Shown here one piece after another: positions 5,390-46,399 of a DNA stretch of 64,000 bases. Within the stretch, counting starts at the first letter, position 1, and every line of letters starts with the position of its first letter. The position numbers and the translations under genes were made by a program. The stretch comes from Sulfurimonadaceae bacterium. Its GTDB lineage: Bacteria > Campylobacterota > Campylobacteria > Campylobacterales > Sulfurimonadaceae. The notes beneath the pieces were generated by a model. It was not told the DNA's origin and did no database searches. It saw nothing but the letters and a program-made list of their open reading frames with translations. The DNA lies in NCBI GenBank assembly GCA_050292115.1, contig JBNKLA010000057.1:239-64238 (forward strand). Reading direction: 5' to 3'.

Positions 5390-7603
5390 ATGCGCATCCG
5401 CTTTTTTGCAGTCAATCGTACACAACAACGCTATTTTTTGCAACTTAAGGAGCACCTTACATGTAGCTCTGATGTGCGTTTATGCAAGCAGTTACTACGT
5501 CCTCGTCTCGCACTATTTCAAATCGACTCACACACACTAATTGAGCATAAAATCAAAGAGCTACGCAATAGCGGAAGTTTTTGGGGTTATGGTATTGGCC
5601 ACTATCTGATGTGCGCAATCTTACATGTTGAGATCACGCTCATGGTGCTACGCTACGCTCACTATGTCGATGACCCGCGCTACGACACCATTGCACTGTG
5701 GAACGGAAAGCATCTGCGCCAAGCGCTTCTGGCACAACTTGCAAGCCATTTTGGCAAGCAAACGCTCTTTTTTGAAAACGGAATGCTGCCCGACACCACC
5801 GTATGCGATATCAAAGGCGTGAATGCCGACAACAGCGTCCCGCGTGAGCGTGCATTTTTTGAAACCTTTACATGTAACGTGAAACGTCCGCTTCCCGAAG
5901 CGCTTAGCGTGCGGCACTCCAAATCGGGTCGGAGCCAGTCTGATAACGGTGCGTGGTTACCCGAAAATTTTATGTTTATCCCGTTTCAGGTCAATCACGA
6001 TACCCAGATTACCCACCATTCGCCTTGGATTGAGGATATGTTTGCGTTTTTTGAACTTTGCAAAGCGATGGCCAAAGCACTCCCTCGCCAAAATTTCATA
6101 TTAAAAATCCACCCCTCCGACCCCGCGGATTACACCTCACTGCTTACGCGCGCCGATAATCTGCCCAACCTCACGTTTGCCAATGCCGTGCCGACGCAAG
6201 AGCTGATTGAGCGCTGTGAGGGTGTGGCCACGATAAACTCCAGTGTCGGTATCGAAGCGATGCTCTATCACAAGCCGGTGATCGTACTGGGCGAAGCGTT
6301 TTATGCCATCGAAGGCATTACGCAAACGATACGCTCTAAAGCAGAGCTTCTTGCACTGCTTGAGCGCAGTATCGACACACCCAATGCTACGCTTCGCCAA
6401 AACTTTTTGGATTATCTCAATAGCGAATACCTCATTCCCGCACACTGGAAAAATCCCACCAAAGCGCACTATGACGCTCTCAATCAAAGGCTTACATGTA
6501 AAGCTTCTCGCAAAGAGTGCGTTCTCTTTATGGTCTCGACCACACTGCATCTTTACAACGCCATCGTTGCGGCAATGATGCACGACGAGTGGGAGTCGCA
6601 CCTCGTGTATATCGATCAGGCTCCACAAGAGCATCACCTCTATTTTGAGGCGCTTCAAGCGTGGGAAACCTCGCCGTTTCAGAGCCTTTCGCTCTATCCG
6701 ACTCGCGTTAAAGGCGCACTCAACAAATGGCGTGTGCGCCGCAACGCGTTTAAACGATTACGCCGCGACGTCGGCGCCATTGCCCCGCAGCGCATCTATG
6801 TCGGAAACGACCGCCGCATCGAATTTGCATACGCCCTACATGTAGCCAAGCAGATTCAACCCGATGTGATCGGCGGCTATATCGACGATGGGGCGTATTC
6901 GTATATTGTGCAAAAGAGCAAGTGGTATCAAGATACGTTTATCGATATCACCTTTAAAAAGCTTATTTACGGTTTTTGGTATTTCCGCCCTAGCATCATT
7001 GCCGCAAGCGACGCGGTACAAGAGGCCTTTGTTGCCTTGCCCGAATTTGTGCACGAAAAGCTCAAAACCAAAACACTGCACCGCCTTGAGACCGACCGAC
7101 TACTCGATACGCGCCTCAAGCCGTTTACCGACTACATTGTGTCACCCTATCATCTTGATACCAAAGCCATCAAAGCGCTTGATCTGCTCTTTATTCTTCC
7201 GCACGAATCGCTCATACGAAGCGCACCCGATTTTATGAACAGCGTATTGCAAAGCATAAAGCAAAGCGTGGCACAAGGCTACAGTGTGGGCATCAAATAC
7301 CACCCGAGGCAATCGGAACGCGATCCCTTGGGGCTATTAGAGTATAAAGGCGTAAGTCTGCTTCCCAACACTCTTGCCTTTGAAGCGTTGCTACCGCTTT
7401 TAGGATCACCCATAATTGTGGGCGACGTCTCTTCGGCACTGCTGATGGCGCGCTGGCTACGTAGCGATCTCAAGGTGCTCTCGCTACGCAAACCCAACGA
7501 TGCTAGACAAAAAGAGATGCGCGCCATTTTTGAGTATGTCGGCATAACCATCGTCGAACCGTCACACTTTCAAACTACTCTTGCCAAGGAGCTTGCGCGA
7601 TGA
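5390..7603 (+). CDS. Two-domain capsule/surface polysaccharide biosynthesis protein (KpsS/KpsC-like N-terminal half)
   Basis: The FIPFQVNHDTQI motif and the surrounding region resemble the Capsule_synth family. The C-terminal ~370 aa form a second, unassigned domain. The ATG at 5390 is preferred over the tracked TTG at 5387. Confidence 0.55.
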   Translation: MRIRFFAVNRTQQRYFLQLKEHLTCSSDVRLCKQLLRPRLALFQIDSHTLIEHKIKELRNSGSFWGYGIGHYLMCAILHVEITLMVLRYAHYVDDPRYDTIALWNGKHLRQALLAQLASHFGKQTLFFENGMLPDTTVCDIKGVNADNSVPRERAFFETFTCNVKRPLPEALSVRHSKSGRSQSDNGAWLPENFMFIPFQVNHDTQITHHSPWIEDMFAFFELCKAMAKALPRQNFILKIHPSDPADYTSLLTRADNLPNLTFANAVPTQELIERCEGVATINSSVGIEAMLYHKPVIVLGEAFYAIEGITQTIRSKAELLALLERSIDTPNATLRQNFLDYLNSEYLIPAHWKNPTKAHYDALNQRLTCKASRKECVLFMVSTTLHLYNAIVAAMMHDEWESHLVYIDQAPQEHHLYFEALQAWETSPFQSLSLYPTRVKGALNKWRVRRNAFKRLRRDVGAIAPQRIYVGNDRRIEFAYALHVAKQIQPDVIGGYIDDGAYSYIVQKSKWYQDTFIDITFKKLIYGFWYFRPSIIAASDAVQEAFVALPEFVHEKLKTKTLHRLETDRLLDTRLKPFTDYIVSPYHLDTKAIKALDLLFILPHESLIRSAPDFMNSVLQSIKQSVAQGYSVGIKYHPRQSERDPLGLLEYKGVSLLPNTLAFEALLPLLGSPIIVGDVSSALLMARWLRSDLKVLSLRKPNDARQKEMRAIFEYVGITIVEPSHFQTTLAKELAR

Positions 7604-34382: not shown

Positions 34383-35258
34383 ATGCCGATTCCACAGGAA
34401 GCCATAATGGACTTTAACAGCTTCAAGAAAAAGTTTGAAAATGAAACCCATTTTCAGCACTATGTGTACCGCAAGTTTCACCGTTCGCAACAAGAAAAAC
34501 AGCTCAAACCCTACCAAGCGGAGCTCATTAAGCTCCAGCGTTATCTTGAACTAAAAAACGAAAAGATGATCGTGCTGGTCGAAGGGCGCGATGCTGCGGG
34601 AAAAGGCGGAGCAATCCGCCGGATTACTCGGTATATGAACGAAAAGCATTACCGTGTCGTAGCGCTGGGCAAGCCCTCGGAAGTCGAACAGTCGCAGTGG
34701 TATTTTCAGCGTTATATCAAGCAGTTTCCCCAAGGCGGCGAGATTGTACTTTTTGATCGTAGCTGGTATAACCGCGCTATGGTCGAGCCGGTTTTCGGTT
34801 TTTGTACGCAAACACAGTACGAGACCTTTATGAACAGCGTTACCGCCTTTGAAGAGGATCTGATCAACCATGGATTTCACTTTATAAAAATCTACTTCTC
34901 CGTCACCAAAGAGGAGCAGGCCGCACGCTTTGATGAACGCGAAAAAAACCCGCTCAAACAGTGGAAACTCAGCGAAATCGACGTGCAGATGCAAGAGCGT
35001 TGGGATGAGTTTACCCAAGTCAAATACCAGATGCTCAAAAAGACCCACACCTATCGTACGCCGTGGACGATTATCCGTAGCGACGATAAATTTTTAGCGC
35101 GTCTCAACGCCATCAAAAGCATTCTTAACAAAATCGATTATGCAGATCGTAACCTTGATCTTGATTATAGTGTCGATCAGAGCATTGTCTATTCGGGTGC
35201 GCATGAGATCGAGATTATGGAGCAGCAGCTTAGAGATAGTGGAAAAATTCTAGGATAA
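34383..35258 (+). CDS. ppk2: Polyphosphate kinase 2
   Basis: The Walker A-like VLVEGRDAAGKGG and RSWYNR motifs are typical of PPK2. An alternative start lies at 34407. Confidence 0.88.
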   Translation: MPIPQEAIMDFNSFKKKFENETHFQHYVYRKFHRSQQEKQLKPYQAELIKLQRYLELKNEKMIVLVEGRDAAGKGGAIRRITRYMNEKHYRVVALGKPSEVEQSQWYFQRYIKQFPQGGEIVLFDRSWYNRAMVEPVFGFCTQTQYETFMNSVTAFEEDLINHGFHFIKIYFSVTKEEQAARFDEREKNPLKQWKLSEIDVQMQERWDEFTQVKYQMLKKTHTYRTPWTIIRSDDKFLARLNAIKSILNKIDYADRNLDLDYSVDQSIVYSGAHEIEIMEQQLRDSGKILG

Positions 35259-35263
35259 TGTGT

Positions 35264-35273
35264 TTACATGTAA
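35264..35273. repeat. TTACATGTAA palindrome immediately after the ppk2 stop
   Basis: Exact copy 6 nt after the stop codon. Confidence 0.95.
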
Positions 35274-35320
35274 CAATTGACGATTCTAGTATCAATTAAT
35301 TACACATAATAAATCCTTAT

Positions 35321-35338
35321 TTATCAACTTTTTGATAA
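35321..35338. promoter_or_regulatory. Palindromic operator candidate TTATCAA-N4-TTGATAA
   Basis: Perfect 7-bp arms overlapping a possible -10 (GATAAT/TAATAT), 35 nt upstream of the ATG at 35373. Confidence 0.3.
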
Positions 35339-35372
35339 TATTGTGATAGTAGGAGTACCCCAAAGGATTATC

Positions 35373-36122
35373 ATGGCAAATATTAGAGTTTTGATTGTTG
35401 AAGACGATGAAGTCACCGCAGCCAATCTTAAGCTCTCACTCGAGAAGCATGACTACGAGGTTGTGGCAATGAGCGACAACGCCACGCAAGCACGCAGTAA
35501 ACTCAAAATCTATAACCCCGATATTGTTTTTATCGATATCTCACTACAAGATAGCACAGACGGTATTGAACTTGCCCGTTATATCAACGACAACCAGAAA
35601 AAGCCCTTTATTTTTCTAACCGCCCATACCGATGAGAACATTATTGAAGAGGCGAAGCTAACCGAACCTTACGGCTACATCGTAAAGCCTTTTGATCCGA
35701 TGAGCCTTCATGCCACCATTGTGATGGCACTGTATCGCTACAAAGAAGAGGAGAAACGCAACCTTAATTTCAATGCCCTGCGTAGCGACAAAGATTCGCT
35801 GGAAAAACTGCTTTATGCCAAAAAACTTTCCGACAAACCCATTGTGCCTTTTGGCGCCGAATATTATCTTGATATCAGCGTATGCGAAACCTTTTACGAC
35901 AGCCAAAAAATCAAACTTACCCGCAAGGAAAATGCCTTTATCCGCCTGCTGGTAGCTCAACTGGGCACCGTCGTTACTTTTGATCAGGTTATCAAATACG
36001 TCTGGGACGAAGGCGGTGCCACCGAAAACAGCGTGCGCACGCTGGTGTGGCGACTACGCAACAAACTCCCGACCAATATCATTAAAAACGCTTCGGGAGT
36101 GGGGTATTATATTGAGGAGTAG
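35373..36122 (+). CDS. Response regulator with a receiver and a winged-helix DNA-binding domain (atypical long linker)
   Basis: MANIRVLIVEDDE...DIVFIDISL...K receiver. The C-terminal LTRKENAFIRLL...VRTLVWRLRNKL trans_reg_C-like domain. Confidence 0.8.
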   Translation: MANIRVLIVEDDEVTAANLKLSLEKHDYEVVAMSDNATQARSKLKIYNPDIVFIDISLQDSTDGIELARYINDNQKKPFIFLTAHTDENIIEEAKLTEPYGYIVKPFDPMSLHATIVMALYRYKEEEKRNLNFNALRSDKDSLEKLLYAKKLSDKPIVPFGAEYYLDISVCETFYDSQKIKLTRKENAFIRLLVAQLGTVVTFDQVIKYVWDEGGATENSVRTLVWRLRNKLPTNIIKNASGVGYYIEE

Positions 36123-36242: not shown

Positions 36243-38840
36243 TCAAACCTTCACACCCGCATAAAAAACCGATGTCGGCGCAGAGAAATTCGGCACATCG
36301 TCATACACAAAAACAGCGTAATATTTATTGACGTCCAGTGCACCGAAGTTATCAAAGGTATAGTTGTCTTTTCCACCATAAAGCTTTTGCCCGTCATAGG
36401 GCGTACACGGCACGCGAAACGGGTTCTTAACTACAATCACGCCGTTGTAGCCCTCACTAGCGCTAGGGCGATCCCAATCCAGCCGAATCATGCCGTTCTC
36501 TTTGCTAATACGCAGATTTTCAGCACTCTGCGGTGCTTCACGCCGTTTTTTGATGTACTCTATTACCAGTTTAGGGCGTGCAGTGCGCTTCTCATCAAGC
36601 CACTGTACATTTTGATTTTTAACAAACGATTTTTCCGACGTAGGTGAAAGGACAAACATCAGTTTCTCTTCTTCGCGGATGGCACTTACCATCTCTTCGA
36701 TAGCATAACGATCAAAAATCAAGACACGTTCACGGTTTTGTTTCAGATCAGACACACTCACGTCATACCCGATACGCTCAACCACTTCACGCTTTTTAAG
36801 CGCATCGTAGCTTCGCAATCCTTCATGTTTTTTGACCATCTCCAGATGAAAACGTTGCACCGGATTAGAGTCGATCTTTTGCGCTTCGATTACTACATAA
36901 GCATTGGTGATAATCGTCGTATCGATATCGGGAACCTGACACAGATCAAACTCGATAGCGCCGTAGTTGCGATCGCCATCGCTATTAAAACCCACCAGTA
37001 GCGACGACTCTTCGATCATCGACTTGGAGATTGTAAATTCCGCTTGTGAGAGCAGTTCAATATGCGCCTCTTCAAGCGTGTACTCAATCTCTAAGCGCGG
37101 TCTAAAGTGCAAGCCACCACTATAGCTACCGTAGCCGATATCCCACTGCATCAGTTGCGAAGAGCGATCCAGCGGCAGACGGCGCGGCCCCTCCATACGA
37201 AAGGTCACTTTGCGGCGTTTGAGTGCATCTTGCAAAATATCGCGCTCTTGTTTAGCAAAAGTATACGTTCGCCAAATGCCCTGCGTGAGCTGGTCTGAAC
37301 GCGTCGGGTTGCCCACATAGCCCAGCATTTCGGCATTTTTAATCTCATCATAACTGTACAAACTATCGCAGGTGCGCTCATCCATAATCCCCACACGCCA
37401 CTCGCCAAAACGCTCCACCTGCACCGAGACGCGGTTCATGGGGTAAAACGAGATGCGCGCGCTTTTCACCAGCGCGTTTTCGGGAATCGTATCGAGTGAA
37501 AAACTGCTCACGCCAAAACACTCTCCACGCCCCTCAGAGATACCTACAAAGAGTGAATTTTCTCCAAAATGCTCTTTGTTTTTGAGTGTCTTTTCCCCTA
37601 CATAGCCGATCTCATCACGAAGCGGAAAGAGCTCTTTGGAGAATTTACCAAGTTCAGGCTTGGTACGCACGCCCACCACGGGTGCAAACGGTGATTTAAT
37701 ATAGCGCTTTTTATTCACCGCGCGAATAAAATAGAAGTAGGTTGTAGCCGTAGGCAGATGGCGGTCGATAAAGCGGCGATCTTTTGTCATTCCGATGCGG
37801 TTGGAACTTTGTGAATACCCCTTAAGACTGCGAGAGCGAAAAATCTCAAAATAGATCTCGTCATCACTCTCATACTCCCACTCTAGCGTCACTTCACGCG
37901 AGTTATAATTACGCACCACAAAGTTTTGAACGCGCTCAAGACCTTCGTTTTTTTCATAATTGGGCACCTCGGAGAGTGCAAACATGAGCGCGGGAATGTT
38001 TTCGTTGATATGCTCTTGCATATGCTCTTTATAATCGGAAATATTGCGCGTTCCCACCTCAACCGTCAGTGCCAGTGCACCTTGCGAATAGTAAAATTCG
38101 CGCCCGCTTCCGCTAATAAGATGTGTGGGCGGTTTACCCATGTGCACTCCGTATTCACGGTCGGAGACCTTGCGAATCTCCTCGGCCATATTGGCGGAAA
38201 GCACATTAAGATCAGTCGCATCTATTGCATCTTCGTGTATAAAGTTGTGTGCCGGAAAAAAGACATTGCCCTGAGAGTGGTAGTCAAGTGCAATGGTAAT
38301 ATTGGGATGTGCCAGCACAAAATCGCGCAATGCTACGGTTTCGGGCTCACTAAAAGCTGAAGGCCCCGAATAGACATTGGAGGCGGTATCTTTATTGGGC
38401 GCAAATCCCACCGAGAAGTTACGGTTGAGATCCACCCCAAAACTCCCATCGGCATTATGGCGGCGATTTTTGCGCCAAAAAGCATAATGGTTGCGCGAAT
38501 ACTCAAACCCGTCGGGATTCGCGCACGGTACAATATAAAAGGTAGCGCGTTCTAAGAGCGAAATCAGTTGCGGATCGTACTCGATATGCTCTATTACATG
38601 TAGGCCAAAAGCCATAGCCAGTTCGATGCCAATCCACTCGCGCGCATGAATGGTGCCGGTATAAAAGAGTGCGGGATGGGTATCGGCACTCTGAATGTCG
38701 TTGCTGATCGTTACGGCAATAAGTTCGCGCTCTTCCCAAGTGGTGCCTATCGTCTCAACTTTGAAGATGTCGGGCAATTGTTCCTGTGCCGATCTAAAAA
38801 AATCCACACACTCCTGATACGAACTGTACTGCTGTCTCAC
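36243..38840 (-). CDS. M14-family zinc carboxypeptidase with a ~550-aa C-terminal extension and no signal peptide
   Basis: GTG start. N-terminal YSSYQECVDFF...IGTTWEERELIAVTIS, zinc ligands HAREW and DYHS, and a catalytic TVEVG. The C-terminal part contains FN3-like segments. Confidence 0.8.
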   Translation of the reverse strand: MRQQYSSYQECVDFFRSAQEQLPDIFKVETIGTTWEERELIAVTISNDIQSADTHPALFYTGTIHAREWIGIELAMAFGLHVIEHIEYDPQLISLLERATFYIVPCANPDGFEYSRNHYAFWRKNRRHNADGSFGVDLNRNFSVGFAPNKDTASNVYSGPSAFSEPETVALRDFVLAHPNITIALDYHSQGNVFFPAHNFIHEDAIDATDLNVLSANMAEEIRKVSDREYGVHMGKPPTHLISGSGREFYYSQGALALTVEVGTRNISDYKEHMQEHINENIPALMFALSEVPNYEKNEGLERVQNFVVRNYNSREVTLEWEYESDDEIYFEIFRSRSLKGYSQSSNRIGMTKDRRFIDRHLPTATTYFYFIRAVNKKRYIKSPFAPVVGVRTKPELGKFSKELFPLRDEIGYVGEKTLKNKEHFGENSLFVGISEGRGECFGVSSFSLDTIPENALVKSARISFYPMNRVSVQVERFGEWRVGIMDERTCDSLYSYDEIKNAEMLGYVGNPTRSDQLTQGIWRTYTFAKQERDILQDALKRRKVTFRMEGPRRLPLDRSSQLMQWDIGYGSYSGGLHFRPRLEIEYTLEEAHIELLSQAEFTISKSMIEESSLLVGFNSDGDRNYGAIEFDLCQVPDIDTTIITNAYVVIEAQKIDSNPVQRFHLEMVKKHEGLRSYDALKKREVVERIGYDVSVSDLKQNRERVLIFDRYAIEEMVSAIREEEKLMFVLSPTSEKSFVKNQNVQWLDEKRTARPKLVIEYIKKRREAPQSAENLRISKENGMIRLDWDRPSASEGYNGVIVVKNPFRVPCTPYDGQKLYGGKDNYTFDNFGALDVNKYYAVFVYDDVPNFSAPTSVFYAGVKV

Positions 38841-38849
38841 GCCGCTCCC

Positions 38850-38859
38850 TTACATGTAA
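38850..38859. repeat. TTACATGTAA palindrome in a 22-nt intercistronic gap
   Basis: Minus-strand reading: TAA gcg TTACATGTAA GGGAGcggc GTG. The motif abuts the RBS of the M14 gene. Confidence 0.95.
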
Positions 38860-38862
38860 CGC

Positions 38863-40182
38863 TTAAGCGAAATGCTTTCTCCACTGCTCAAGCTGCTCTG
38901 TTGCGATGAAATCATAGTCAGCCAATCCTTCGTAGGAGCTTACTTCGCCACTATCGATCAACTCTCTGATTTTCACGGCAATCGCTTCATCCATGCCATA
39001 AAGCGTCATCAGTTCGGTCAGTGTTACCGTGGTAAAATCAAATGTATGTTCTTCCGGTAGTTCGTCAGGTGCATCCTCATCCTCGGTTTTCACCATCTCG
39101 GGAAGCTCCTCCTCGCTAAGTGGCGGTGCAATCGGCTCGGGCACATCAGTCGGATGTGATGCATCGGTGCGCTCCATCTCAAAATCGCCCTTATCGGCCA
39201 GCCAGTAGGCACCGTCTGTCGAAGGTGTGTATTTAGCAAAATAGAGGTGACGTAGGGTGCGTAGCAGTGACGCATCCATCTTACCAAGCTCCTCCCACGA
39301 AAAGAGCGGTACGTGTGGCATTTTAAAATAGCCTTCGCTTAGATCCCACATGACATATTGACCAATCCAGTCGCGAATATACGGAAATGCCGCAAAGGCC
39401 GTAGCGCACTCTAAAATATACGCCTCTTTGCTTTTTTCATCTATGGCGATATCACACGCCCAATACTCCGCTTTAGCCGCTTTAGAGGCTTTGACCGCCA
39501 ACTCCAGTGCATTCATCGGTACGTTTTCATAGCTCATAGAGCCACCTTGAGAGGTGTTGGTAATCCACGCCCCCTGCCCCGAATAGCGCCAAAATGCGCA
39601 CACAGGTTTATGGCCGATAAGCATCACACGGATATCGCCAGAATCTTTGAGCGCTATTGCATCTTGCAGGTACATCGGCACGTATTTTTTCTGATCAAAG
39701 AGCGCTTTGGCCTCGGCATGATTATCGACTTTATGCACATAATAACCGCCGTAGTTCGAGGGCCCGTAGGAGCGTTTGACAATCTTGGGGTATTTGGCCG
39801 TCTTAAGATACTCATACCCTTTTTTCACATCATAAAAAATCTCCGTATGCGGCGCTTGGAGATTGTATTTACGGCAAAAAAGCGTTACGTTCTCTTTGGA
39901 CTTATTGGAAAATTGCGTCTCGATTGAGGGCAAAAACCGCACGTTTGGAAGCGCTTTGGCGATCTCTTTAAAAGTCTCATACGCCGTTGCCGGAATATTG
40001 CCCACCAATACGTCGATCTTTTTGGCTTGTACCTCTTTAATAAAACGCTCTTTGTCGTTGCCCCAGTGATACACTACAGTCTCGATTTTGTCGGGCCATC
40101 CCTTGAAGTTGCTTTTATCAAAAAAACGCAGTACATAATCGAGATACAGTAATCCCAGCTTCGGCAGTTTTGGTGTGCTCAT
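38863..40182 (-). CDS. ATP-grasp ligase-like protein with an acidic tail and a C-terminal helix-hairpin-helix-like segment
   Basis: ATP-grasp hallmarks (YPKIVKRSYG, GDIRVMLIGHK, NTSQGGS, ACDIAIDE...YILECA). The C-terminus EEELPEMVKTEDEDAPDELPEE is followed by LTELMTLYGMDEAIAVKIRELI. Confidence 0.7.
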   Translation of the reverse strand: MSTPKLPKLGLLYLDYVLRFFDKSNFKGWPDKIETVVYHWGNDKERFIKEVQAKKIDVLVGNIPATAYETFKEIAKALPNVRFLPSIETQFSNKSKENVTLFCRKYNLQAPHTEIFYDVKKGYEYLKTAKYPKIVKRSYGPSNYGGYYVHKVDNHAEAKALFDQKKYVPMYLQDAIALKDSGDIRVMLIGHKPVCAFWRYSGQGAWITNTSQGGSMSYENVPMNALELAVKASKAAKAEYWACDIAIDEKSKEAYILECATAFAAFPYIRDWIGQYVMWDLSEGYFKMPHVPLFSWEELGKMDASLLRTLRHLYFAKYTPSTDGAYWLADKGDFEMERTDASHPTDVPEPIAPPLSEEELPEMVKTEDEDAPDELPEEHTFDFTTVTLTELMTLYGMDEAIAVKIRELIDSGEVSSYEGLADYDFIATEQLEQWRKHFA

Positions 40183-41090
40183 CTATTCTCCTGTTTTTTG
40201 GTCTTACGGTCAATCATATCCACAATCAACTCGATTTTGCGCTCGTTAAAGTTAATCCCCATCTTCTCTTGCTCCGGTGTGGCAAATGCCGGAATACCGT
40301 TAACTTCAAGCACCGTGTAGCACTCGCGGTCAAGATCATATAAAATATCAACCCCCGCAATATCCATCCCCAGTGCTTTGGCCGCCGAAACTGCAACATC
40401 AACCACCTCATCATTGGGTTCGCGCAAAATGATGCTACCGCCCGCCGTCACATTGGTACGCCAGTCGCGACCTGTGGCTTTGCGCCCATAGCAACCCACA
40501 AACTTCCCATCAACCACATCGATACGGTAATCGGAAAAATCGTAATTAATAAAGCGCTCCACATAGATGTTGCGAATATTCATCTGATTAATAAAAGGCA
40601 TCAGCATATCAAAATTTTCACGGCTGTTTAGTAGCGCCATACCTGCACCGCCCCAACCGTCAATGGGTTTAAACACCATTTTGCCCCATGTGTCGATCCG
40701 CTCATACAGATGATCCAAGTCGCTCTCGCGGTGACAGATAAAAAAGTCGCTCGTCGGCACGCCGGCACGTTGCAACGCCATATTGGTGCGTAGCTTATCT
40801 TCGGAGAGTTTAAAGGCGTCAAAACTGTTGACCGTCGTGATTATGTCGGCAAGGATTTCGTACATGTAAACCTGCCCCAGCGTCTGCTCTCCGGCGTTGT
40901 AGGAGAAAAAAAGATCAAGATCAAACATATTGGTGGCGTTACACATCATCGCGCCGTTATGCACTTCGGCAAAACGCAGATCAAGCCCCTGAACCACATC
41001 GATGTCACGTTCACGAAGCTTGGCCTCGATCTGCTTTTGAATACGATCGCCGCCGCTGTTAGTGTACATCCACATTCCAATTTTACGCAT
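40179..41090 (-). CDS. RimK-family ATP-grasp alpha-L-glutamate ligase-like protein
   Basis: KMVFKPIDGWGGAGM, DYRIDVVDGKF, WRTNVTAGGS and AGVDILYD...YTVLEVNGIP. The ATG at 41090 is preferred and gives an 8-nt overlap with the upstream M20 gene. Confidence 0.8.
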   Translation of the reverse strand: MRKIGMWMYTNSGGDRIQKQIEAKLRERDIDVVQGLDLRFAEVHNGAMMCNATNMFDLDLFFSYNAGEQTLGQVYMYEILADIITTVNSFDAFKLSEDKLRTNMALQRAGVPTSDFFICHRESDLDHLYERIDTWGKMVFKPIDGWGGAGMALLNSRENFDMLMPFINQMNIRNIYVERFINYDFSDYRIDVVDGKFVGCYGRKATGRDWRTNVTAGGSIILREPNDEVVDVAVSAAKALGMDIAGVDILYDLDRECYTVLEVNGIPAFATPEQEKMGINFNERKIELIVDMIDRKTKKQENR

Positions 41091-42189
41091 CAAAACTCCC
41101 CTTTTTAATAAAGTGCTCAAACAGCTTTACACTTAAATCGATACGTGATGCAAAACTCGCCTTGCTGGCGCGCTCATGCACCGTATGATCGCCATCGCCA
41201 AACGGCCCCAAACCGTCAAGCGTTACCACGCCTTGCGAACTCACAATATTCGCATCGCTCACGCCGCCACGCTCTTCGTAAAGTAAACGCTCGCCCGTAA
41301 TGCGTTCAATCGCATCAATCCACGCCATCGAGGCTTTGGAAGGCTGCATCACATCGCGCTGGATACCGCCACTAAGTTGAGATGTGCTCCCCTCAACATA
41401 CGATGTACTCACTATCGTATCAATCGCGTGAAGCAGACGCTCACGTTCATCGGCACTTTTGTAGCGTATTTCAAAGAGCAGATGGGCGCGTGGCGAAATC
41501 GTATTGGCTCCAATACCGCCTTCGATTTTGCCGACATTTACGGTGGTGCCTTTATCTAAATTGGTAAGGGCTACAAGTTTTTGGATTTTATAACTTGCCT
41601 CAAGATTGGCATCGATCCCTTCGGCATAGTGATTGCCCGCATGTTTGGCCAGCCCCGTAATCGTAATCGTAAAAGTTCCGACCCCTTTACGCGCTGTGAC
41701 CACTTCGCCCTTAGCACCCGCCGCTTCATATACCAAAGCGTAATCATACTCTTGTGCCAGCTTCGCGCTCAGCAATTTAGAGTCATCACTACCCGTCTCT
41801 TCGTCACTCACCAACAGCATGTCGATATTGTGAATCTCCATACCCTTTACATGTAAGGCTCTAAGGGCTTCAAGCGCTACGATATTACCGCCTTTCATAT
41901 CGCATACACCAGGGCCATATATCCACTGATCATCTTCGCTATAGGTCTCAAAAGTATCGGGAGGAAAAACGGTATCAAGGTGGCCTAATAAAAGCAGTTT
42001 CTTACCCTCAGCGCTTTTTGAGCGGTAATGACGGTGCCCGCCAATCAGTTCACGCTGATGATGCTCTACATGAAAACCAAGCGGTTCAAGCCATGCATCA
42101 AACTGCTCGCCGACTGCATCGACACCTGCCTTGTTTTTGGTGTACGAGTTGATACAAACAATCGTTTTCAGATCGTCAAGATAGTGCAT
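41083..42189 (-). CDS. M20-family metallopeptidase (glutamate carboxypeptidase/CPG2-like)
   Basis: LLLGHLDTVFP, CDMKGG and SDEETGS metal-binding and catalytic motifs. No signal peptide. Confidence 0.85.
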   Translation of the reverse strand: MHYLDDLKTIVCINSYTKNKAGVDAVGEQFDAWLEPLGFHVEHHQRELIGGHRHYRSKSAEGKKLLLLGHLDTVFPPDTFETYSEDDQWIYGPGVCDMKGGNIVALEALRALHVKGMEIHNIDMLLVSDEETGSDDSKLLSAKLAQEYDYALVYEAAGAKGEVVTARKGVGTFTITITGLAKHAGNHYAEGIDANLEASYKIQKLVALTNLDKGTTVNVGKIEGGIGANTISPRAHLLFEIRYKSADERERLLHAIDTIVSTSYVEGSTSQLSGGIQRDVMQPSKASMAWIDAIERITGERLLYEERGGVSDANIVSSQGVVTLDGLGPFGDGDHTVHERASKASFASRIDLSVKLFEHFIKKGSFDA

Positions 42190-42300
42190 TCAACACCTCT
42201 ACATGTAAGAGTGGAAATATAAAATGCGATTATACAGCGAAATAATTGAAATTGGTTAAAAAGTTGCGGAAGTTTTAAACAGAAGCGGGGAGTCCGAAAA

Positions 42301-42657
42301 TTACTTTCGGAGCTCTTTAATACGTGCGGCTTTACCGGCACGGTTGCGAAGATAGAAGAGTTTCGCACGACGAACACGACCGCGGCGAATCACTTTAATC
42401 TCTTCGATGCTGTCACTGTAGATTGGAAATACACGCTCAATCCCTACACCGTTAGCACCGATTTTGCGTACATTTACACTGCGTCCGGTACCTTCGCCGC
42501 GAAGTGCGATACAGACACCTTCATAGTTTTGAACACGTGTTTTTTCACCCTCTTTAATGGTTACAGAGAGGCGAAGCGTGTCACCTGCGCGAAATTCGGG
42601 AATATTTTTCTCTGCGATCTGCGCTTTTTCAAAGTTTTCGATGTACTTATTTCTCAT
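42301..42657 (-). CDS. rplS: 50S ribosomal protein L19
   Basis: [14 protein letters not shown]...FRAGDTLRL. The internal ATG at 42657 is preferred over the tracked 42675. Confidence 0.95.
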
Positions 42658-44542: not shown

Positions 44543-46399
44543 TCAATCACCGCTTGGCCCGTTATGACAGTCATAACAGGTTACCTGATCGCCTTTTTTA
44601 TACGTTACGGTTTTGCCTTCGGCTCTGAAGCTACGATCACTCCATACTGCCGAGAGTGCGGAACCGCGATAATCACTACCGTGGCATGAACGGCACGACG
44701 CACGGTCACGCTCGGCGTAATCTTCATGATCGCTAACCCATCGTGATCCGACCGTATGCATTCCGTGAGGGCCACCCGATTTAGTTCGAGGAACACTATC
44801 ATGGCACGCGCTACACTCCGCTACCGTACCGCTATGTCCCTGTAAGGAGATACTCAGCAGATTATCGCCTGCTTCATGCGATGGATAAATAGCATGTGTG
44901 GCACCGTGGCATGATTCACACTGAAGGTCACCGTGACCCGTGCTAAAGCGGTACAGGCTGTATCCGCTAGCCGGCGTATTAGGATTGGTGGCAAAACGGG
45001 TATCGACTGCGGCGCGAAGCGTCCCGTTTGATGTAAGTGCCGAAGTATAGCGTTTGCCGTCTTGGTGGCACGACTGGCAATTGGGCTCTTCAAACCATCC
45101 GTTGCGGCTTGACGCGCCGACTTGAGCCATGTTACCGTGACAGCTTTGACAATCCATTCCCGCGTCACCCATAGCACCGCGCAGACACTGCGTCTCTTGC
45201 CCTGGGTGACAGCTATAACATGAGTTACGGTTGCTACTGGAATTAAGCGTTCCGCCGTTTTTAGGATCGGCAGCATTGGCATGACCACTATGTATGGCTT
45301 TTGTAAGCGGCGGCACACCGGAGACTCCGGTACCTGCAAGGGCATTGGAAGCGTGGCACGATGCACATAAAATCGGTGTGCCCGAAGTTTGTGTGGCTTC
45401 AAGTCCACCGGCGTTGTAGCTAATTCCTTTTGCCTGCAATGCACTCATATTATTGCTAACGGCATTGGGATGCAGATCATCATGTTTGCGCAAAATGTTA
45501 CGTTTGTAATCGCGTAGCGCGTTGGCATCATTCACCCATCCCGCATCGGGACGGGCATCGGCATACCCGCTGGTACTGCCATGGCAGGTACGACAATCCA
45601 TCTCATCACTCACGGGTAACACCGTAATCGCTTCGGCAAGTACCGCACCCGAACTGTTTTTGGCCACGACCTTAACACGCGGATAGAAATTTTTGGCACC
45701 GTTATCATCAATAGGGGTAAGTGGAATCCCCTCGGCTTCCCACCACTCATGCGTCGCATTAAACTGCATTGTCTGTGGCGTACGAGTTTGTACTTTCATG
45801 CCGGCTAAACCGGTATCATCCGCAAGCGCGGCACCGTAAAGTTTCTCAGAGTAGTCCCAGAAGTTTGTTTTTGGATTATTGTGTTCATCCACCATGCTGG
45901 TAGTATTGTAAACACCACTTGCGCTTGCTTCGGCTTCGTAGGTGAGTGTCACACCGCTAGTCACTAAATCACCGCTCTTACTTTTCAATTGGGCATGAAG
46001 CGTATTGTAGGGCGGTAAAATCGAAAAGACCGAATAGTCATCGCCGTCCATACAGTGCATCCCCAAATCGTTCCACGCTAAAAGCGCATAATTTCCGGTT
46101 TGAGCGGCAACCGATGATGACGAAGCAGAGCGCGCCGACGATGATGAACGTGACCACCTACTTGATGAAGAAGAGCGTGACCATCTGCTTGATGATGAAG
46201 AAGAGCGTGACCACCTGCTCGAAGACGAAGAGGACCTCGACCATCGGCTTGATGATGAATGATGCTCTTCATCCTCATCACTCTCATAATGATTGTGCGA
46301 ATTATACGAACTCTCTTTGTTGCCTGAACTTGCGCTTTGACAACCACCAATAGCCAGTACCAATGCTACGGCACCCATACTCAAAAACAGCGACTTCAT
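44543..46399 (-). CDS. Nine-haem c-type cytochrome lipoprotein with a Ser-rich repeat linker
   Basis: Lipobox LAIGGC. Nine CXXCH motifs (CRTCH, CASCH, CYSCH, CQSCH x2, CESCH, CSACH, CRSCH, CYDCH). Confidence 0.85.
   Translation of the reverse strand: MKSLFLSMGAVALVLAIGGCQSASSGNKESSYNSHNHYESDEDEEHHSSSSRWSRSSSSSSRWSRSSSSSSRWSRSSSSSRWSRSSSSARSASSSSVAAQTGNYALLAWNDLGMHCMDGDDYSVFSILPPYNTLHAQLKSKSGDLVTSGVTLTYEAEASASGVYNTTSMVDEHNNPKTNFWDYSEKLYGAALADDTGLAGMKVQTRTPQTMQFNATHEWWEAEGIPLTPIDDNGAKNFYPRVKVVAKNSSGAVLAEAITVLPVSDEMDCRTCHGSTSGYADARPDAGWVNDANALRDYKRNILRKHDDLHPNAVSNNMSALQAKGISYNAGGLEATQTSGTPILCASCHASNALAGTGVSGVPPLTKAIHSGHANAADPKNGGTLNSSSNRNSCYSCHPGQETQCLRGAMGDAGMDCQSCHGNMAQVGASSRNGWFEEPNCQSCHQDGKRYTSALTSNGTLRAAVDTRFATNPNTPASGYSLYRFSTGHGDLQCESCHGATHAIYPSHEAGDNLLSISLQGHSGTVAECSACHDSVPRTKSGGPHGMHTVGSRWVSDHEDYAERDRASCRSCHGSDYRGSALSAVWSDRSFRAEGKTVTYKKGDQVTCYDCHNGPSGD
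46112..46258 (-). repeat. Imperfect 27-30 bp in-frame tandem repeats encoding (S)n-RWSR units
   Basis: The protein reads SSSSRWSR SSSSSSRWSR SSSSSSRWSR SSSSSRWSR SSSSARSASSSS. The DNA units are similar but not identical. Confidence 0.7.

Follow-up and report, generated by a model that had tools for sequence, protein, structure and literature searches.

What chemistry is carried out by two ATP-grasp ligases and two carboxypeptidases that are encoded side by side? The question is raised by four minus-strand genes in a 64-kb stretch of DNA (the window, 64,000 nucleotides of contig JBNKLA010000057.1 from a Sulfurimonadaceae bacterium), which encode, in order, an M20-family metallopeptidase (M20), a RimK-family ATP-grasp protein (G1), a second and divergent ATP-grasp protein (G2), and an M14 carboxypeptidase of 865 residues (M14). 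An earlier note on this DNA had named these families, which Pfam confirms, and had proposed a cycle in which the ligases add, and the carboxypeptidases trim, a C-terminal residue, probably glutamate (Glu). The chemistry set out here is predicted from homology; family membership was judged by Pfam gathering scores and by the equivalog and subfamily cut-offs of NCBIfam.

We consider it probable, though by no means secure, that the four genes constitute a writer/eraser module, which adds an acidic amino acid as an amide by ATP-dependent ligation and takes it off again. The bond made and hydrolysed would be an amide that joins the alpha-amino group of the acidic amino acid to a carboxylate of the acceptor. 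The amino acid is most likely alpha-linked L-glutamate; we infer the choice of Glu over aspartate (Asp), as well as the acceptor and the division of labour between G1 and G2. The module is uncharacterised, and varies a known theme in which an ATP-grasp ligase for amino acids is paired with a peptidase that acts as eraser. Of the earlier proposal, the add-and-trim logic is strengthened by an invariant arginine in M14 and by the CPG2 residues of M20; the acceptor could be a protein tail, a free polymer, a glycan or a small molecule.

The block is conserved as a unit. Relatives of G2 were sought among 5.8 billion proteins (more than 1300 were found, and the best 120 inspected) and among 1.84 billion 50%-identity representative proteins; 513 GTDB species genomes contain a G2 relative, and the best 80 loci were examined for gene order by tblastn with the four window proteins. 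The best 120 relatives of G2 (69–81% identity) belong to Sulfurimonas, unclassified Campylobacterota and Thiomicrorhabdus, and the best 80 of the 513 species include Sulfurimonas, Sulfuricurvum, Arcobacter, Halarcobacter, Malaciobacter, Poseidonibacter, Aliarcobacter, Sulfurospirillum, Nitratifractor, Hydrogenimonas, Thiomicrorhabdus heinhorstiae and one metagenome-assembled genome (MAG) labelled Desulfuromonadales. Wherever the contig is long enough the order and orientation M20-G1-G2-M14 are the same, with tight spacing, in about 70 of the 80 loci and in at least eight genera. The earlier note had staked its proposal beforehand on such co-conservation, which extends to a block moved to Thiomicrorhabdus. 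When all flanking open reading frames (ORFs) of the 80 loci were clustered no fifth conserved gene emerged, and the unit of selection and transfer is therefore exactly four genes. Because their orthologues have 49–81% protein identity across Campylobacterota, we take the four genes to be real and not chance ORFs.

As the earlier note had remarked, signal peptides are not seen; hydrophobic N-termini and transmembrane-like segments are absent from all four proteins, which are predicted to be cytoplasmic. The module has no evident orthology to a pathway that would explain all four genes, as no curated pathway cut-off is reached. A full-text literature search, which did not take in the 2009 survey by Iyer et al. 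of gene neighbourhoods of ATP-grasp amidoligases, returned no paper on this four-gene module.

Predicted specificity of the two peptidases

M14 is matched by Pfam Peptidase_M14 over residues 13–266 of 865 (5e-53), and its nearest solved structures are CPA4 (1e-30) and CPT (2.5e-28). The 54 solved M14 sequence relatives are all of the CPA, CPB, CPT, CPO or CPD/E/M/N type with no CCP among them, and the fold search agrees; by these comparisons M14 is a CPA/CPT-type enzyme (M14A/T) and not one of the CCP type (M14D). The secretion signal and pro-segment typical of the subfamily are not seen in M14, which gives no Propep_M14 match and whose N-terminus is not hydrophobic. H65, E68 and H188 align with the CPA zinc ligands H69, E72 and H196 (HMMER alignment to CPA4), and R126, N139/R140 and E261 align with CPA R127, N144/R145 and E270. 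All of these residues, together with R247, are invariant in the 45 orthologues that were aligned.

Arg247 (codon 38100–38102) is the counterpart of residue 255 of CPA, which forms part of the base of the S1' pocket; the register is supported by the flanking S-G-S-G/E-F, compared with S-G-S-S/D-W in CPA4, and by the spacing to E270. The position is Arg in all 45 orthologues and in 78 of the 79 loci in which it was also read, and the remaining locus has Lys, such that it is basic throughout. Enzymes of the A/B subfamily in which position 255 is basic are specific for acidic C-terminal residues, carboxypeptidase O (CPO) being an example (PMC9925722). Because of this invariant Arg, M14 is predicted to be specific for C-terminal Glu or Asp.

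The second peptidase points in the same chemical direction. M20 matches Pfam Peptidase_M20 (1e-20) and M20_dimer (2e-17), and its nearest solved structure is carboxypeptidase G2 (CPG2; 1cg2, E 3e-24), with a poly(aspartic acid) hydrolase as a more distant solved relative. All metal and catalytic residues of the two-zinc site of CPG2 (H112, D141, E175, E176, E200, H385) are kept, in the aligned motifs HLD, CDMKGG, DEE, YEA and GDH. Among the NCBIfam models PRK07338 'hydrolase' comes nearest (225 bits, below the cut-off of 357), and the glutamate carboxypeptidase model PRK06133 gives 181 bits, below its cut-off of 349. CPG2 releases C-terminal Glu, and CPG2-type M20 enzymes act on small N-acyl-Glu compounds.

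The two ATP-grasp ligases

G1 is a RimK-family protein by Pfam (PF08443, 72.3 bits, cut-off 21), and falls just under the cut-off of the NCBIfam family model rimK_fam (TIGR00768; 129.8 bits, cut-off 143.4). Its best NCBIfam match is MptN (132.8 bits), below the equivalog cut-off of 350, and its scores are likewise short of the cut-offs for LysX (102 bits, 275.6), CofF (56.9 bits, 300) and the RimK equivalog NF007764, ribosomal protein S6--L-glutamate ligase (58.3 bits, 331). The earlier note had likened the ligases to RimK, MptN and CofF; as an identity this does not hold, as neither G1 nor G2 reaches those equivalog cut-offs. When aligned to E. coli RimK, G1 keeps the ATP-binding K, DxR, RxN...GG and D...E-V-N. 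In the Pseudomonas RimK structure R189 and N262 contact the end of the bound poly-Glu chain, and their equivalents, the DxR Arg and the E-V-N Asn, are present in G1.

Cyanophycin synthetase and glutathione synthase are also weakly matched by G1 in their ATP-grasp domains (1e-14 to 1e-15), which raises the question of whether the module is a cyanophycin or glutathione pathway under another name or, given its peptidases, serves recycling or remodelling of peptidoglycan peptides. E. coli breaks down the murein tripeptide with the involvement of a cytoplasmic M14 enzyme (MpaA) and an M20 enzyme (PepD), and one orthologue of M14 has a faint MpaA match (E 0.006). M14 itself is CPA/CPT-like and not of the MpaA type, and an Arg at position 255 has no obvious fit with removal of meso-diaminopimelate or D-alanine. 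The cyanophycin synthetase model scores 52.7 bits on the ATP-grasp part only, against a cut-off of 850, with no Mur-ligase domain; the block as a whole has no Mur-ligase domain, cyanophycinase, GshA, Mpl, LdcA or epimerase, and all scores are far under the cut-offs. We regard any of these pathways as extremely unlikely.

G2 is more divergent. It exceeds the Pfam RimK cut-off of 21 (48.1 bits, 1e-12), and stays below those of rimK_fam (69.3 bits, 143.4), RimK (20.3 bits, 331), MptN (64.6 bits, 350), CofF (43.2 bits, 300) and LysX (61 bits, 275.6). The family is isolated: only 22 of the 1.84 billion representatives match below 1e-30, most of them fragments of family members, and beyond these come generic relatives of RimK and LysX, none better than about 1e-11. 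G1 and G2 do not appear to be recent paralogues, as their BLASTP match covers only 37 residues (E 0.003). G2 has a clade-specific conserved extension (residues 270–335), and its metal/substrate motif, ILECATAF, has E-x-A where the family has E-x-N; the Ala is present in all 33 close orthologues aligned, and a decayed relative of 287 residues (P0130) has Ser. K136, R185, N209, GG, D244 and E258 are kept, with Ile in place of Arg as in LysX and Ala260 in place of Asn. The possibility that G2 is a dead pseudoenzyme was considered, and is not maintained as a firm conclusion: the Arg-to-Ile change is common to active LysX, and loss of the Asn is common to whole conserved subgroups. G2 is not called inactive because the same Asn is replaced, by Ser, in the GAK-system ATP-grasp and in the unnamed RimK-like nearest outgroup of G2.

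This outgroup, the nearest relatives from beyond the family, consists of RimK-like proteins of about 290–330 residues with E-x-S. The genes of three of them (loci L088, L089 and L090) lie in clusters with GT4/GT5 glycosyltransferases, GH15/GH57 hydrolases, an APH-type kinase and a carbamoyltransferase, which hints that the ATP-grasp branch of G2 may act in glycan metabolism.

The G2 sequence WITNTSQGG matches HWITNTARGG of LysX, and the best solved relatives of G2 are LysX and ArgX-type proteins. The module could then be a LysW-type carrier system, in which G2 adds an amino acid to the gamma-carboxyl of the C-terminal Glu of a carrier protein and a LysK-like M20 releases the product. LysX with an M20 hydrolase is a known pair of writer and releaser, and M20 weakly matches [LysW]-lysine hydrolase (1e-10). 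We think such a system very unlikely: no locus has a small carrier gene in or beside the cluster, genes of the LysZ/Y/J type are not linked among the clustered flanking ORFs, the G2 score for LysX is 61 bits against 276, and M20 is much closer to the CPG2 type than to the LysK type. The 200–470-nt 'gaps' between G2 and M14 in Arcobacter-type loci, which might be taken for a small carrier or precursor gene, are an extended G2 tail with a second (HhH)2 element, where HhH stands for helix-hairpin-helix.

That tail is a persistent feature of G2. The acidic tail and HhH-like end described earlier are seen in the window protein as 17 acidic and 2 basic residues (D+E and K+R; isoelectric point (pI) 4.05) in residues 336–385, a linker that varies among orthologues, and as a weak match to HHH_3 (PF12836) in residues 386–439 (15.8 bits, E 0.015, profile positions 4–64 of 65), below the gathering score of 27. 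Orthologues in Arcobacter, Sulfurospirillum, Nitratifractor and others have two HHH_3 stretches (E 1.5e-24, 51–86 bits). Most G2 orthologues have ComEA-type HhH domains, of which the window G2 keeps only the first, acidic module. From this distribution we take the HhH element to be ancestral and persistent in the G2 family, and reduced in this organism.

The acceptor and the proposed mechanism

The catalytic domain accounts for only part of M14; the remaining 570 residues are confidently modelled by AlphaFold2 (AF2) as fn3, two jelly-rolls and fn3, and several M14 orthologues have a precomputed fn3 annotation. The two jelly-roll modules, A and B, are homologous to each other (hhalign 92%, E 6e-7). 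All 45 orthologues match the NCBIfam model DNRLRE_dom (NF033679) at E ≤0.05 (best 8.8e-10), the window M14 with 19 bits and E 0.0012 against a domain cut-off of 34 bits. A fold search with the full-length model gave carboxypeptidase catalytic domains only, and we therefore used a sub-model of residues 396–768 (pLDDT 87). Its top Foldseek matches are 8wab, a chondroitin-sulfate-binding carbohydrate-binding module (CBM) (E 2e-7, TM 0.73), and 7vbo, the alginate-binding founder of CBM96 (TM 0.57), both at probability 1.0. CBM96 is tied to the DNRLRE domain; its groove, which is positively charged and has six subsites, takes up the interior of an alginate (polyuronate) chain (PMC9971899).

These components suggest the following mechanism. 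G1 would activate the acceptor carboxylate as an acyl-phosphate, on which the alpha-amino group of Glu is then coupled, perhaps in several rounds. G2 would carry out a distinct ligation with an altered metal site, for example initiation, a branch, or use of a different acceptor carboxylate, and its acidic linker and HhH tail could serve in its targeting or regulation. M14 would take off C-terminal acidic residues one by one, with the S1' Arg conferring specificity, and its two modules of the polyanion-chain-binding type would give it a grip on a long, negatively charged substrate. M20, with an enclosed active site that handles small substrates, would hydrolyse the last short N-acyl-Glu or dipeptide products. 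A polymeric polyanion is accordingly the acceptor that we prefer, either a carboxylated glycan or a chain of poly-alpha-Glu that is free or borne by the C-terminus of a protein, since a chain-holding carboxypeptidase with a dipeptidase-type enzyme would fit full depolymerisation better than a four-residue tail; we think it less likely that the ligases put a short tail on ribosomal protein S6. That the module works after transfer to another class of bacteria speaks for a universal acceptor or for none, with free Glu as primer.

In a bolder form, which we consider doubtful but worth entertaining, Campylobacterota and, through transfer, Thiomicrorhabdus would make and degrade a long cytoplasmic alpha-poly-glutamate, possibly branched by G2 as cyanophycin is. 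The chain would be free or attached to a protein associated with the nucleoid or the ribosome; its synthetases would be G1 and G2, and its depolymerases the exo-acting, chain-clamping M14 together with M20 as dipeptidase. If this were true, the polymer or long-chain polyglutamylation system would be one not described before, and perhaps a buffer of glutamate, osmotic pressure or cations.

The substrate could also be small. G1 and G2 would then make a Glu dipeptide, a pseudopeptide or the tail of a cofactor, which M20 and M14 hydrolyse. The best NCBIfam match of G1 is the cofactor-type ligase model MptN (133 bits), CPG2-type M20 enzymes take small N-acyl-Glu compounds, and the self-sufficiency of the module after transfer to another class fits a universal small substrate. 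There is also a mammalian parallel in RIMKLB, a synthase of beta-citrylglutamate and N-acetylaspartylglutamate (NAAG), the corresponding hydrolase being a glutamate carboxypeptidase (PMC7907349). We nonetheless think a small metabolite unlikely, as all matches are far under the equivalog cut-offs, no transporter or other biosynthetic gene is linked among the clustered loci, and a CPA-type M14 with fn3 and tandem chain-binding modules, like an HhH-tailed ligase, is hard to explain with such a substrate.

The position of the module suggests a third type of acceptor. In the window it lies directly downstream, on the same strand, of rpsP, a KhpA-type KH protein gene, rimM, trmD and rplS, as the earlier note had reported, and the same adjacency is seen in 28 related loci. 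With G1 in the RimK family, this is consistent with a RimK-like role in which a short Glu tail is put on S6 or another ribosomal or translation protein and trimmed by the peptidases, as by RimK and RimB of Pseudomonas; RimK with the RimB protease is described as an add-and-trim cycle on RpsF (PMC7343187, PMC11957791). All 28 loci with the adjacency to rplS are of the Sulfurimonadaceae type, and those of Arcobacteraceae, Sulfurospirillum, Nitratifractor, Hydrogenimonas and Thiomicrorhabdus lack it; Arcobacter-type loci have argG, tsaE and lptB in place of rplS, the Thiomicrorhabdus module is flanked by a glyoxalase gene and a Ppnp gene, and rpsF itself is outside the window. The gap between rplS and M20 also has its own -10-like box, TGTATAAT. 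Because of this box, and because the adjacency is of the Sulfurimonadaceae type only, the ribosomal link is weak, and the inference drawn from the rplS neighbourhood in the earlier note is weakened. The RimK equivalog scores of 58 (G1) and 20 (G2) bits against 331 also speak against a RimK-like role, as does the lack of the acceptor-binding S7/R8 motif in G1, and trimming of a short tail would leave an 865-residue M14 with chain-binding modules, plus an M20, unexplained. We judge this role to be quite unlikely.

Several observations weigh against the writer/eraser reading that we favour. Every chemical step in it is predicted from homology, and both G1 and G2 are below every curated equivalog cut-off. 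By inspection G1 is without the N-terminal S7/R8 poly-Glu-binding motif of RimK, and has instead a conserved W-x-Y-x-N-x-GG loop. The Ala for Asn replacement in G2 may make it catalytically different or regulatory, and its HhH module in the window is acidic and reduced, and DNA binding is therefore doubtful in this organism. In M14 the equivalent of CPA Tyr248 is His240, which varies (H/K/R/S) among orthologues; Tyr250 and Tyr251 come after it with no assigned structural position, and AF2 models the active-site loops poorly. The DNRLRE modules have a calculated pI near neutral, and their fold likeness to polyanion-binding CBMs is at 13–14% identity.

Of known systems, RimK/RimB is the closest functional relative, TTLL/CCP the closest analogy and CPO the closest specificity precedent. 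Like the module, RimK/RimB (RimABK) of Pseudomonas, with E. coli RimK as a relative, joins a RimK-family ligase, whose catalytic motifs G1 keeps, to a peptidase that can shorten the product and that is probably co-transcribed in the module as well; RimK makes alpha-linked poly-Glu chains. The erasers here are M14 and M20 metallocarboxypeptidases whereas RimB is a retropepsin, and the module has a second, divergent ATP-grasp protein with an HhH tail, no EAL regulator, and a G1 in which the RimK acceptor loop is not kept. The eukaryotic TTLL/CCP system also has several cytoplasmic ATP-grasp writers with M14 erasers (M14D) for acidic C-terminal residues, but the ligases of the module are RimK/LysX-type rather than TTL-type and its M14 is CPA/CPT-like. 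The likeness to TTLL/CCP drawn earlier is therefore sound as an analogy, a convergence of logic, and fails as kinship.

CPO (M14A) shares the basic residue 255 at the base of S1' and is among the sequence and fold matches of M14, but is an extracellular, glycosylphosphatidylinositol-anchored animal enzyme with no accessory domains, unlike the predicted cytoplasmic window M14 with no pro-segment and with fn3-DNRLRE-DNRLRE-fn3. LysX/ArgX with LysK likewise pairs a RimK-family ligase with an M20 hydrolase, and LysX, with the WITNT..GG motif, is the best solved relative of G2; the module differs in the absence of carrier, kinase, reductase and aminotransferase genes and in its CPG2-like M20. RIMKLA/RIMKLB with glutamate carboxypeptidases II/III combine two RimK-like ligases with metallohydrolases of N-acyl-Glu (PMC7907349), but they are mammalian, act on small molecules, use M28 hydrolases, and have nothing like the chain-binding modules or the HhH tail. 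The central modules of M14 resemble by sequence and fold the CBM96/DNRLRE modules of alginate, chondroitin and hyaluronan lyases, whose known members bind internal polyanionic stretches; those are extracellular, in polysaccharide lyases and surface proteins, whereas here the modules are fused to a predicted cytoplasmic peptidase.

To our knowledge, reversible polyglutamylation in bacteria is known only as RimK/RimB acting on ribosomal protein S6. The present enzyme set is much more elaborate, with chain-binding modules and an HhH tail in addition to its two ligases and two metallo-erasers, and is unusual in its Arg-255 CPA-type enzyme with CBM96-like modules, predicted to be cytoplasmic, and in its HhH-tailed, LysX-like ligase. 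It is strongly conserved (60–80% identity between families) in an ecologically important phylum of sulfur-oxidising and marine bacteria and appears to have been exchanged with co-occurring Gammaproteobacteria. Identification of the substrate would bring to light something new, be it a modification of proteins or a polymer or metabolite within the cell, and a function would follow for thousands of genes labelled 'ATP-grasp domain-containing protein' or 'M14 family metallopeptidase'.

Locus organisation, transfer and variants

The tight packing described earlier is confirmed by the junctions read from the sequence (Table 1). M20 and G1 overlap by 8 nt (M20 stop at 41083, G1 ATG at 41090), G1 and G2 overlap by 4 nt in a common ATGA, and a 22-nt spacer with AAGGGAG separates the G2 stop (38863) from the M14 GTG (38840). 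The mechanical ORF of G1 opens with the TTG at 41120; if translation begins instead at 41090, where an ATG follows the ribosome-binding site AAGGGGAG, the protein has 303 residues, as have the orthologues. There is no terminator-like site on the coding strand within the four-gene block, and most Sulfurimonadaceae-type loci have, by eye, a TATAAT-like box 25–60 nt 5' of the M20 start. The simplest reading is a single transcript from the module's own predicted promoter, possibly with read-through from rplS. A riboswitch or structured leader 5' of M20 was considered and rejected, since Rfam gives no match even at E 1 and the fold z-score is 0.07.

Table 1. Coordinates of the four genes, their domains and the upstream gap (window positions)
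Feature	Position	Strand	Basis or remark
M20-family metallopeptidase, CPG2-like, 368 aa, catalytic and dimerisation domains	41083..42189	-	Pfam
G1, canonical RimK-family ATP-grasp ligase, 303 aa	40179..41090	-	Pfam RimK 5e-20
G2, whole ORF	38863-40182	-	
G2 core, divergent ATP-grasp, aa 1-335	39178..40182	-	Pfam, NCBIfam, alignments
G2 acidic low-complexity linker, aa 336-385	39028..39177	-	composition
G2 C-terminal HhH-like module, acidic, reduced, aa 386-439	38866..39027	-	HHH_3 E 0.015
M14 carboxypeptidase, whole ORF, 865 aa	36243-38840	-	
M14 catalytic domain, CPA/CPT-like, no pro-segment, aa 1-298	37947..38840	-	Pfam 5e-53
First fn3-like beta-sandwich of M14, aa 299-395	37656..37946	-	AF2 pLDDT 86-95, weak Pfam fn3
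Two tandem DNRLRE/CBM96-like jelly-roll modules of M14, A (aa 396-590) and B (aa 591-768)	36537..37655	-	
Second fn3-like domain, C-terminus of M14, aa 769-865	36246..36536	-	AF2 model
rplS-M20 intergenic region, 111 nt	42190..42300	-	
Weak hairpin spanning the rplS stop	42293-42311		in the rplS-M20 gap region
Extended -10-like box TGTATAAT	42236-42229	-	40 nt 5' of the M20 start
One copy of the genome-wide word TTACATGTA	42208-42200	-	
M20 ribosome-binding site AGAGGTG	42200-42194	-	

Thiomicrorhabdus heinhorstiae, a gammaproteobacterium, has the full block (L001/L010, 5960–12021; L numbers denote fetched loci). Its proteins are 72–78% identical to those of the window, more so than the orthologues from Arcobacter. 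The block and its flanks are equal in GC content (0.48 against 0.49), and its neighbourhood is unrelated; together these features indicate lateral transfer from Sulfurimonadaceae. A defence-system or phage origin was rejected, as PADLOC matches none of the four proteins and no relatives were found on viral contigs. An ORF cluster of signalling proteins (GGDEF/EAL/receiver) near the loci is heterogeneous and at varying distance.

Variants of the block were also seen. In L021 (7513–9417) G1 is duplicated in tandem, giving M20-G1a-G1b-G2-M14, with one copy like the Arcobacter type and the other like the window type; a 1-kb insertion at the same site in L032 is probably the same duplication. A low-GC (28%) contig (L091, 1–4757) has the order G2-M14-G1 followed by a separate ORF of the HhH-type tail module alone. 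A stand-alone G2 paralogue (L059, 9001–10461, and also L053) has a core that is 77% identical, a Lys-rich linker and a full (HhH)2 tail, and adjoins selO-like and chemotaxis genes; the same MAG has a complete operon (L036). Directly 3' of rplS in L085 (8001–8864) is a decayed G2-like remnant of 287 residues with 42% identity, no Pfam match and WITNT lost; M20, G1 and M14 are missing there, and the module has therefore been lost in some lineages. In Candidatus Sulfurimonas marisnigri (L004, ~6100–6130) M20 has an in-frame TGA at an Arg of the window protein (ELIGSH*HY compared with ELIGGHRHY) and is otherwise intact, with 71% identity, reflecting either recent pseudogenisation or a sequencing error.

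A 10-bp palindrome, TTACATGTAA, occurs 28 times in the 64 kb, about once per 2.3 kb, within and between genes, for example at 669, 5868, 15095/15113, 19189/19206, 36169, 38850 and 42200. Its 9-mer core has 71 matches on both strands against 0.47 expected and a maximum of 3 in 100 shuffles. Three copies lie in or flank the operon (before M20, before M14 and after M14), and could pass for a local regulatory site; an operon-specific site of this kind was ruled out, as the word is over-represented genome-wide; its density resembles that of a DNA-uptake sequence or another genome-wide word. Enrichment is seen only in the nearest relatives (L012, L008, L005 and L006; 3.6 per 10 kb in L012 and 2.1 in L008), and the word is lineage-specific, because it is absent from 78 of the 86 fetched loci.

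Convergent to the end of the operon are genes for a PPK2 polyphosphate kinase and an OmpR-type response regulator (34383–36122, plus strand), an arrangement that is not conserved next to the module in other genomes. Between ffh and rpsP (44543–46399, minus strand), at a position where Candidatus S. marisnigri (L004) has nothing, is a gene for a predicted lipoprotein of 618 residues with an MtrC/MtrF-like multihaem domain, numerous CxxCH motifs and, at the N-terminus, a series of SSSSSRWSR repeats.

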